Assembly: GCA_030324005.1 (NCBI GenBank) | Contig: JARDVH010000110.1 | Span: 56,637,807 to 56,701,806, forward strand | Direction of reading: 5' to 3' | Source: Negaprion brevirostris | Lineage: Eukaryota | DNA length: 64,000 nucleotides | Part shown: in pieces, positions 19,445 through 52,160 of the stretch | Position numbering within the stretch: position 1 is the first letter of the stretch | Layout of the letters: each line of letters opens with the position of its first letter | Position numbers and translations under genes: made by a program | Notes under the pieces: generated by a model | Seen by the model: only the letters and a program-made list of their open reading frames with translations | Databases searched by the model: none | What the model was told of the DNA's origin: nothing

Positions 19445-19812
19445 ATGGCATGGTGGCACAGAGATTCTCCCTGTTGCCTCAGAGCAAGAAGTCTCACAAC
19501 ACCAGGTTAAAGTCCAACAGGTTTATTTTCGCCAGGGACTCGGATTCAATTCCAGCCTCGGGTCGCTGTCTGTGTGGAGTCTGCACATTTCTACCCATGT
19601 TTGTGTGGGTTTGCTCCAGGTACTCCGGTTTTCTCCCACACTCCAAAGACATGCAGGTTAGGTTGATTGGCCATGCTAAATTGACCATAGTGTCAAGGGG
19701 ATTAAAAGGGTAAATATTTGGGGTTATGGAAGTAGGGCCTGGGTGGGATTGTGGTCGGTGCAGACTCAATGAGACAAACGGTCTCCTTCTGCACTGTAAG
19801 GATTTGGTGATT
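19445..19812 (+). mobile_element. HE1-like SINE with a 44-bp Penelope-type insert in its head
   Basis: The head is split at gcctcagagc | cgccagggac; the CR1-type tail is intact. Confidence 0.9.
19486..19529 (-). mobile_element. Penelope-type fragment
   Basis: aagaagtctcacaacaccaggttaaagtccaacaggtttatttt is the reverse complement of the segment downstream of the hammerhead at ~51900-51940. Confidence 0.8.
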
Positions 19813-49527: not shown

Positions 49528-50409
49528 AAACAAGTGTTCGTTATTTGCCACAGACTGTAGAATGGGGATGAATATTTTGCATAAACAGTTGGTAACAGTG
49601 CCTGTGTGTAAAGATTTGCAATTAATTTGGTCCAATATCTATTTTTTTACATTTCTTAACCCTGATCATTTCTGGGAGTGACTTTTTTGATTCCACCTCT
49701 GCATCAGTTTATCTAAACCTAGCAAATAATGTTGTAAATTAATTGGAAGTGTAGAGAGGCATTGGCACTGAATCATTAATTCATTAATACATATTCCACA
49801 TATTGGAGTAAGGCAGGAGTAAATTACGATCAAAATAAGTGTCAAGTTGCATTGAAGAATTTGTGCAATTTATACAAATCGTCCATTCATTCATTCTCCT
49901 CAATCACAAGCTCAATTTGCTTTCCTACTCTACTGGAATAGTGAAATTCTCATTTGCATGACATTCTCCCTTGGAACAACTCCAATTTCAGTTCCAGTCC
50001 TTGTTGTAATGCATTGAAAAAACAGTGCAAAGTAGCTCATTTCCATTCCTTATGAATTGAAAACACATCTGCTTGAAATTATTATACCTTGGAATCAATC
50101 TCAATGTGTTTGAGCTTTGACCAGACGCACATGGAATTCTTCCAAGGCCAACTGAAAAGAAACACATTGTTAACCACCACGTACTGTGCTTGAGCACATG
50201 TATCCAAAATGGAAACTACTGTTATTGCTCAATGTTACCAGAGGAAATGGGTAGTCAGTCAGAACATGTCTTGCTCTGTTTACAAGTTCAGATGCAGATA
50301 AGGCCAGATAAGGCAGATAAAGATAAAACCACCACTCTCAACTGGTTGTTACAACTCAACCCTTTCTGTGGGTAGTACTGGTGGCACAGTAGTTGGCAGT
50401 ACTGCCTCA

Positions 50410-50536
50410 TAGCTGATGCACTCACCTGAGGGAGGAGCAGCACTCCGAAAGCCCGTGATTCATTGGATTTTAACATGGTATTGTGAGATTTCTTCCAGTG
50501 CCCACCCCAGCCCAATGCCGGCATCTCCACATCATG
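50410..50536 (+). mobile_element. Short Penelope-type insert containing a hammerhead fold
   Basis: TSD gcctca; tcac-CTGAGGG-A-GGAG-cagca-CTCC-GAAA-gccc-gtga. Confidence 0.8.
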
Positions 50537-51260
50537 GCCTCACAGCGCCAGGGATAGAGAACAAAGAAGAAAAATACAGCACAGGAACAGGCTCATTGAC
50601 CCTCCAGGTCCGTGGTGGTCATGATGTTTGAAGAGAACTACAAAAAAACCCCTTCTGTCCTTACTTGGTCCATATCCCTCTATTCCCTCCCTATTCGTGA
50701 ACTCATCCAGATGCCTCTTAAATGTTGCTAATGTACCTGCTTCCACCACCTCCTCTGGCTGTGTGTTCCAGGCACCTGCCCCTCTCTGCATGAAAAGCTT
50801 CCCCTGCACACCCCCCTTAAACTTTTCCCCTCTCACCTTGTACCTTGTAATTACTTTTTTAATTGACATTTCCACCCTGGGAAAAAAGCCTCTGACTATC
50901 CACCCTGTCTGTGCCTCTCAGGTCTCCTCTCAGCCTCTGTCTTTCCAGTGAAAACAATCCTAGTTCATTCAACCTCTCCTCATGGTAACACTCTCGAGGC
51001 CAGGCAACATCCTGGTGAACCTGCTTTGCACTCTCTCCAAAGCTTCCACATCTTTCTGGTAAGTGTGGTGGCCAGAATTGCAAGTCATATTCCAAATGCG
51101 GCCTTACCAAGGTTTTATATAACTGCACATGATTTCCCAATTCTTTTACTCAATGCCCCAGCTGATGAAGGCACGTGTCTTCTTAATCACCTTGTCACCT
51201 ACATTGACACTTTTCGGGAACTGTGGACCTGCACACTTAGATCCCTCTGTATATTAATAT

Positions 51261-51540
51261 GAAAAGAACAAAGAAAAGTACAACACAGGAACAGTCCCTT
51301 CAACCTCCAAGCCTGTGCCAATCATGATGTCCGAATTAAACTAAAAAAACCCATCTGCCCTTACGCAATCTGTATCTCTCTATTCCCTCCCTATTTATAT
51401 ACCCATCCAGATGCCACTTAAATGGTGTAAATGTGCCTGCTTCCACCACCTCCTCTGGCAGCATTCCAGGCACCCATCACTCTGTGTGAAAAACTTCCCC
51501 CACACATCTCCCTTAAGCTTTTCCCCTCTCACCTTGAAAG
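51261..51540 (-). mobile_element. Second CR1 3' end nested in the CR1
   Basis: Repeats the 3' UTR seen at 50556-50840; the host sequence atccctctgtatattaatat | tcctaagggttctgcc resumes after it. Confidence 0.85.
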
Positions 51541-51813
51541 ATTTTCCTAAGGGTTCTGCCATTTACAGTAAAATTCACACCTAAATTTGATTTTCCAAAA
51601 TGCATCAGCTCACATTTGTCTGGATTAAACTCCATCTGCCAACTCTATGCCCAAGTCTCTAATCTATCTGTGAAACTGTCCTGTTGTATCCTAAGACACT
51701 ATCAGCAACTCCACCAATCTTCATGTCAGACCTCCCACATTTTCCTCCAGATCATTTAAATATACTGCAAACAACAGAGGTCCCAGCACTGATCCCTGTG
51801 GAACACCACAAGC

Positions 51814-51978
51814 CTTTATATGCCCTGTTTCTGAACAGAACTCTCCATTCACCTGACAAAGGAACAGCGTGTTCCGAAAGCTTGTGGCATTTACTATCAA
51901 ATGAACCTGGACTTTAACCTGGCATTGTGAGACTTCTTACTGTGTTTACCCCAGTCTAAGGCGGCATCTCCACATCAT
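51814..51978 (+). mobile_element. Short Penelope-type insert with 13-bp TSD
   Basis: TSD gaacaccacaagc at 51801-51813 and 51979-51991; ends in ggcatctccacatcat, like 50410-50536. Confidence 0.85.
51849..51887 (+). ncRNA. Minimal type I hammerhead ribozyme fold (G8 to A substitution)
   Basis: tcac-CTGACAA-A-GGAACA-gcg-TGTTCC-GAAA-GCTT-gtgg: stem I, a 6-bp stem II, GAAA and a palindromic AAGCTT stem III. Confidence 0.72.
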
Positions 51979-52160
51979 GAACACCACAAGCTACAGATCT
52001 CCATTCTGAAAAAACACACTTACACCACTATCCTCTGTCTTCTATGACTAAGCCAGTTCTGTATGCATCTAGCCAGTCCACCCCGAATCCCATGTGATTT
52101 TAGTTTTTGTACCAGCTTGCCATGTGGGATCCAGTTTCAATTCCAGCCTTGGGTAACTGT

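Follow-up and report, generated by a model that had tools for sequence, protein, structure and literature searches.

A truncated Neptune-type Penelope-like element end with a probably inactive hammerhead in a preferred palindromic CTG-N17-CAG site of Negaprion brevirostris

The insert and its surroundings

The window analysed here is a stretch of 64,000 nucleotides of Negaprion brevirostris DNA (GenBank assembly GCA_030324005.1, contig JARDVH010000110.1, forward-strand positions 56,637,807 to 56,701,806). It contains a 165-bp insert on the plus strand (51814-51978) between perfect 13-bp direct repeats at 51801-51813 and 51979-51991, exactly as an earlier note on this DNA had described; the chance of a perfect 13-mer at both element boundaries is about 6e-6, with 20x20 offsets allowed for. 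The repeats, which have no strand of their own, are the two copies of a target-site duplication. The insert ends in the AT of an ORF start codon, and the first G of the right duplication copy is also the G of that ATG. Outside the duplication, on the plus strand, lie the left half of a target motif, C-N-CTG-NN (51794-51800, CTG at 51796-51798), and its right half, NN-CAG (51992-51996, CAG at 51994-51996); the empty site is CTG-N17-CAG, with a full left half and the CAG on the right. The host is a decayed LINE fragment on the minus strand (approximate bounds 51540-52130), which we take to be of CR1 type from its reverse transcriptase (RT) motifs. It translates as an RT that is interrupted in the GVPQGSVLGP codons, and its Pfam RVT_1 match is weak (E 0.077 over 25 aa).

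The last part of the insert (51939-51978, plus strand) is an optional "tail" of about 36-40 nt between the two 3' ends used by the family, one at about -36 and one at the ATG. Two further copies share one site in a tRNA-type SINE: a plus-strand copy of the same element class with its own hammerhead (50404-50546), flanked by a 10-bp duplication with one mismatch, and an inverted, minus-strand fragment that begins at the -36 end (19476-19528). The hosts named previously, CR1 and SINE, are thus confirmed by the RT translation and by the SINE around these two copies. Upstream of the CR1 host fragment, at 50550-51540, lie two adjacent, related copies of a repeat resembling a LINE 3' end (about 50550-50900 and 51260-51540). 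In a look for RNA evidence, no RNA data set was listed for the stretch; contigs from four runs cover it, although contigs of this kind do not reveal starts, ends or an intron, and no GT-AG joint was found among the rows listed.

The hammerhead motif

The insert carries a minimal type I hammerhead at 51849-51887 (plus strand), each part of which was found where it had been placed before. Stem I pairs 51849-51852 with 51884-51887; the core CTGACAA occupies 51853-51859, with a G8A change of the CUGANGA box at 51858; an extra A follows at 51860; the 6-bp stem II pairs 51861-51866 with 51870-51875; and GAAA (51876-51879) overlaps the palindromic AAGCTT (51878-51883; AAGCUU in RNA). From standard hammerhead numbering, we take the predicted cut to fall between 51883 and 51884. 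An Rfam search returned no hammerhead model at E<=10. When folded in isolation, the 55-nt motif forms stems I and II, with stem II pair probabilities of 0.65-1.0, and its folding energy is no better than that of shuffled sequences (z -0.24). Given the Rfam result and the shuffle-like energy, the case for the hammerhead is a comparative one.

The comparison used 87 aligned copies, in which the core columns are 90-99% conserved, CpG positions excepted, and the CUGANGA and GAAA boxes are kept apart from CpG sites, the window copy carrying G8A. Position 8 is G in 69 of these copies and A in 15, which bears out the proposal that the change arose by CpG deamination. At stem II pairs 3-5, 0.743 of the cells are Watson-Crick, compared with 0.552±0.023 after shuffling (83 of 104 copies parsable), and 14 hand-picked subfamily representatives show two-sided changes in four of the five stem II pairs, both tests being inflated by relatedness. 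The subfamily forms include GGAAC/GTTCC, GGAGC/GCTCC, GGGTC/GGCCC and GAGGG/CCCTC. A covarying stem II with G10.1-C11.1, an extra base after A9 and a palindromic helix III are all present, and with the conserved boxes they agree with the earlier assignment to the Penelope-type minimal hammerheads. The AAGCUU duplex is predicted at -6.5 kcal/mol; the lowest-energy predicted dimer pairs the stem II arms instead.

As described by Cervera and de la Pena (2014, PMC4209133), the minimal hammerheads in the pseudo-LTRs (pLTRs) of metazoan Penelope-like elements (PLEs), known among fishes from Xena, Poseidon and Neptune, are likewise of type I with a short helix I, an extra nucleotide between A9 and 10.1, G10.1-C11.1 and a palindromic 15.2-16.2; they too form many subfamilies with compensatory changes and occur mostly as single motifs from truncated elements. 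The shark family differs in its stem II of 5-6 bp, against 7-8 bp in the S. mansoni families, and the window copy differs from the motifs presented there by its G8A; in its available text that account makes no mention of sharks (PMC4209133). The ribozyme is a known cargo of such elements, and both a hammerhead and a stump are known kinds. The hammerhead of the insert, standing alone with G8A, is likely dead and would not cut.

The parent element and its copies

The insert is the 5'-truncated pLTR end (the last 165 nt) of an abundant Neptune-type PLE encoding an RT and a GIY-YIG endonuclease. At eight loci the same 165-nt segment directly precedes ATG-ACT-ACC (MTTIDTAN...), and this N-terminus aligns with that of an 881-aa full-length relative, which indicates a pLTR end that stops at the start codon; the segment is also found after the stop codon in many copies, giving a pLTR from partial tandems. 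Two copies, L098 and L116, run contiguously from the RT through a CX4CxxC linker, a VYLIRC..YIGET endonuclease, a stop codon and a 3' UTR to the hammerhead and the element end. In L098 the RT, which matches RVT_1 at E 3e-8 and has a YIDD motif, belongs to one ORF that precedes the repeat and is continuous with the hammerhead end. A link of the copies to a GIY-YIG/RT ORF, raised beforehand as a possibility, is therefore real, since copies run into that ORF.

The endonuclease assignment draws on several comparisons. Pfam GIY-YIG (PF01541) is matched by 33 of 65 aligned endonuclease relatives and not by the L116 endonuclease alone; the endonuclease profile matches T4 endonuclease II at E 6.7e-5, and the CCHH residues C49, C53, H73 and H89 are conserved in at least 90% of relatives. 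The endonuclease model reaches a pLDDT of 93 and its best fold matches are GIY-YIG structures, at E values of only 0.1-0.4, and the fold from a single sequence has a pLDDT of 37. A Pfam search of four short fragments and PDB sequence searches with single queries gave no match. The linker CHSNLCKTC is CX4CxxC in copies and relatives, fitting the CX2-5CxxC of Neptune and Nematis; the two clades are not separated here, and the label Neptune is preferred because a vertebrate survey in a preprint found, in its available text, only Neptune and Poseidon elements among PLEs. The closest named proteins are from sharks (72-82% identity), in keeping with the shark host suggested earlier. Among the copies read no intact ORF was seen, the longest open stretch being 402 aa. 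Endonuclease-region pieces also stand inside NCBI shark gene models (P0006, P0013, P0015 and P0020, in NOXP20-like, septin 5a, XRCC5 and IQCK models), as exonised copies or annotation errors.

This organization resembles that of the endonuclease-bearing (EN+) Neptune and Nematis elements (Craig et al. 2021, PMC8557442; Arkhipova et al. 2013, PMC3846280), for which those sources describe a single ORF that encodes an RT, a CX2-5CxxC linker and, at its C-terminus, GIY-YIG with CCHH, together with strong 5' truncation, partial tandems and an adjacent inverted pLTR, a one-sided tail of 30-40 bp, duplications of 8-10 bp and palindromic junctions. The optional tail, inverted 5' copies and a short target duplication are all present in the shark family.

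A genome search gave 5097 candidates, and 1.14 Mb of evenly spaced DNA held 107 fragments, about one per 11 kb, in keeping with the high copy number suggested earlier. The 30 best copies share a sharp right end and extend leftward by 0-800 nt, and across the family the 5' ends form a continuum that reaches beyond 2 kb. The 3' ends (n=101) lie at the ATG in 49 cases and near -36 in 33. Head-to-head pairs (n=24) comprise 11 ATG/-36, 7 ATG/other, 3 ATG/ATG and 3 of other kinds including one -36/-36; the ATG/-36 asymmetry is a tendency. The arms of such pairs often end at near-equal 5' positions (-205/-208, -89/-90, -155/-148 and -131/-132; L243, L196, L188, L289, L279 and others), which suggests fold-back synthesis or hairpin trimming rather than two independent truncations. 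N-run assembly gaps adjoin a large share of the copies (at loci L004-L030 and at many more), and 141 insertions were dropped for an adjacent gap or a locus edge; inverted arms that disrupt short-read assembly would have this effect, so that long inverted copies would be under-sampled. The window copy lies 6% from its subfamily consensus, within the 3.5-7.6% of its 30 nearest copies, and is therefore not recent; the best other copy is 91% identical among the 40 of 5097 candidates scored, and with these values the suggestion that the family is still inserting finds no support.

In a random sample (L180-L319), 24 of the 81 5' ends that could be mapped cluster at the front edge of the hammerhead, between -137 and -127. 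Of the ends between -140 and -124, 20 of 28 are in head-to-head pairs, so most are true junctions; transcripts that begin just ahead of the ribozyme could give the cluster by run-off, as could joining at the near-palindrome TCACCTGA. The family consensus has a conserved AATAAA 13 nt past the predicted cut, which in the window has decayed to AATGAA (51900-51905, plus strand) and may be a poly(A) signal; together with a 5'-end cluster at about -135 it would give a unit transcript a single complete hammerhead at either end. A cleavage footprint is absent: no more than 2 of the 81 5' ends come within 2 nt of the predicted cut, and 72 of the 107 copies run across it; tandem and circular templates are not told apart by these data.

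Target preference and the proposed route of insertion

Insertion sites of the family fit (C-N-)CTG-NN-[~13-bp duplication]-NN-CAG(-N-G) as a loose preference; neither this motif nor the hot spots figured in the earlier note. Among 84 testable insertions outside the hot-spot searches, a duplication was found in 19, the window copy being one of them, against 0 of 80 in a shifted control; 18 of the 19 measure 12-15 bp. With the window copy excluded, both half-sites flank 9 of 18 background duplications (2.0% of random sites) and at least one half-site flanks 16 of 18 (26% of random sites), and in five of the nine with both halves the CTG-CAG spacing is 17. Counted from the element ends irrespective of duplications, CAG begins most often at +14 to +16 for ATG ends (46 cases where 12.1 are expected, n=85) and at +15/+16 for -36 ends (32 where 10.5 are expected, n=50). 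Taken by itself, the evenly spaced sample has 19 for an expected 5.4 and 21 for an expected 6.5; all these windows were chosen after the profile had been seen. A G stands two bases beyond the CAG in 42 of 74 cases (p 2e-10). Only 74 of 150 junctions have CAG at the expected place and about half lack it, so that the motif is a preference and not a strict site; of 89 junctions taken without selection, only 2 belong to the two hot spots described below, which hence do not drive the signal. Loci L031-L059 belong to another repeat and served only as extra background DNA. Two trivial sources of the motif were rejected: residual element sequence, because the element's own CAG lies at +13 followed by TC and the peak at +15/+16 followed by NG, and a general mimicry of the tail border CACAG by targets, seen in 1 of 89 junctions without enrichment. 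A search of the open literature, covering article listings and the available text of PMC8557442, PMC3846280, PMC9977147 and PMC12031113, found no spaced palindromic target for any PLE.

Two sites are hit again and again. The nearest relative of the window copy, L002, is an independent insertion into a different CR1 copy: it occupies the same base, is flanked by a 13-bp duplication of its own and has an inverted arm. The exact junction pattern occurs at 19 places, 18 of which continue into CR1-like sequence as judged by eye; 12 of the 19 have a mappable duplication, and their inserts measure 26-267 nt, lie in several CR1 variants and show both direct and inverted layouts. As a control, element ends were collected 0-30 nt upstream of a downstream CR1 anchor: 13 of the 14 matches are at this base (one with a 1-nt deletion), where about 0.03 junctions per position are expected in the 31-position window, a rough figure from sample densities and an anchor density based on a single occurrence. 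The CR1 GVPQG site is thus hit repeatedly by this element. At the SINE, by hand count, 27 of 30 ATG-end junctions are within about 2 nt of one position and 61 of 69 -36-end junctions break right after CACAG(C/T), the latter after 30 of 99 matches had been set aside as probably a variant of the element itself. Both half-sites are complete at the SINE, with a spacing of 14 and a 10-bp duplication, against 17 and 13 at the CR1 site, and at both hot spots CTG lies two bases before the duplication and CAG two bases after it. Four of the 30 SINE junctions (C31, C59, C128 and C157) carry 10-15 nt of the ORF start, so that reverse transcription could start slightly inside the ORF while the DNA break stays fixed.

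It is proposed that the window holds a truncated Neptune-type end with a likely dead hammerhead in a palindromic CTG-N17-CAG that the family preferentially hits, likely by means of two endonuclease subunits nicking beside the CAG half-sites, and we regard this reading as well founded. A dimeric endonuclease is the likely cause of the target choice. In the parent element, two terminal hammerheads are predicted to pair via AGCU/AAGCUU and cut as a dimer, releasing unit-length RNA, a scheme proposed by Cervera and de la Pena (PMC4209133). The GIY-YIG domains of the endonuclease dimer would nick each strand 2 nt 5' of CAG(NG), cutting both strands symmetrically about 13 nt apart and leaving 3' overhangs of about 13 nt. 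The bottom-strand end would then act as primer for reverse transcription at the AUG of element RNA that is still unprocessed (tandem or circular), aided by 1-4 nt of pairing; in cases where the top-strand end primes as well, usually at -36, the common head-to-head form would result. At the window site synthesis would have halted after 165 nt, early termination leaving a stump and repair creating the duplication. This route fits the Poseidon protein of Anolis carolinensis (PAc), which in vitro cuts and extends both strands, has two RT start sites bounding the tail, is a predicted dimer and inserts uncut RNA without need of the hammerhead (Frangieh et al. 2024, PMC11167929). The same source also sets PAc apart: its RT starts 111-118 nt into the ORF and not at the AUG and about -36, it prefers ATT and primes without homology where the shark family prefers (CN)CTG-N17-CAG(NG) with short microhomology, and the hammerhead of the shark family, unlike that of PAc, lies wholly upstream of the ATG (PMC11167929). 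For other EN+ PLEs, the described biases are toward microsatellites such as (TA)n, AT-rich DNA or rDNA, with duplications of variable length, in contrast to the spaced palindrome, the narrow 12-15 bp and the CR1 and SINE hot spots found here (PMC8557442, PMC3846280).

The hot spots could instead arise from RNA-DNA microhomology at the priming sites (GA..ACCA with the ORF start, CAC.AGT with the -36 site) without protein recognition of a palindrome. Microhomology of at least 2 nt is indeed present in 7 of 13 ATG ends (0.16 under a simple null, p 0.002, the common ATGGCT variant allowed), there is enrichment at both kinds of end, and the SINE site ends in CACAGC, five bases of which are identical to the complement of the -36 site. 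However, CTG and CAG(NG) lie outside the duplicated, primer-forming stretch and yet are enriched at background sites, and both SINE junction types keep the DNA break fixed while the RNA start point moves; pairing as the whole explanation is therefore unlikely, and microhomology probably adds to the motif rather than replacing it. The repeated CR1 junction might also go back to a single ancestral insertion that CR1 amplification, segmental duplication or gene conversion has multiplied, as the common site and about 150 nt of right flank shared with L002 would allow. That reading is largely refuted and scarcely credible, because the inserts vary in length and layout, the hosts are different CR1 variants, both duplication copies carry host-specific changes and the insertion disrupts the CR1 RT.

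The nature of the moving unit and of its ribozyme invites two further readings. The earlier note had left the choice between a Penelope-type and a retrozyme-like short family, and a discrete non-autonomous mini-element mobilised in trans, with an amplifying unit of about 165 nt, would resemble the non-LTR retrozymes, which are also short, non-coding, hammerhead-bearing and related to pLTRs (PMC7229834; 10.64898/2026.07.22.740005). Most copies are short, only 12 of 107 reaching 300 nt upstream of the ATG, the 5' ends cluster in front of the hammerhead, and a preprint that traces retrozymes back to pLTRs reports some from one chondrichthyan (10.64898/2026.07.22.740005). Against this, the 5' end of the window copy at -166 lies off the cluster and 5' ends form a continuum; no tandem array of a fixed, hammerhead-bearing non-coding unit was found in the local region or the 1.14 Mb sample, and the five same-strand neighbours within 600 nt are not unit repeats. 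Retrozymes are described as tandem units of fixed monomer length with usually canonical hammerheads, unlike this dispersed, variably truncated end of a coding element with its minimal PLE-type motif (PMC7229834; 10.64898/2026.07.22.740005). The mini-element is thus improbable: the Penelope-type attribution stands, and the discrete, retrozyme-like one gives way to a shared 3' end with variable 5' extension into the RT and GIY-YIG ORF. Continued activity of the hammerhead in the insert, or its co-option by the host, is very improbable even with stems I and II intact and formed in the predicted fold, since G8A breaks the C3-G8 pair, a G8C change abolishes cleavage in the Anolis element (PMC11167929), minimal hammerheads gave no monomer cleavage in the experiments described (PMC4209133) and the copy has decayed much as its neighbours have.

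The target motif matters more than the ribozyme, which is of a known kind and in the window likely dead. It bears on how PLEs choose and cut their targets and on why they leave inverted ends with a one-sided tail; the only PLE reconstituted in vitro so far preferred AT-rich DNA. The side result on target specificity is solid and testable: a symmetric motif of fixed spacing lets the proposed dimer and the two-ended priming be tested directly and at low cost, and it names the substrate for doing so; moreover, a sequence-preferring RT-endonuclease is of interest for targeted gene insertion. In a bolder form, to which we give about equal chances of being right or wrong, the dimeric GIY-YIG endonuclease of shark Neptune elements would read the 27-bp palindrome C-N-CTG-N17-CAG-N-G in the manner of a restriction enzyme, make a double cut with a 13-nt stagger and prime both ends on two fixed RNA sites, the AUG and -36; with one such site in the GVPQG codons of the CR1 RT, the family would repeatedly disrupt its main competitor LINE.
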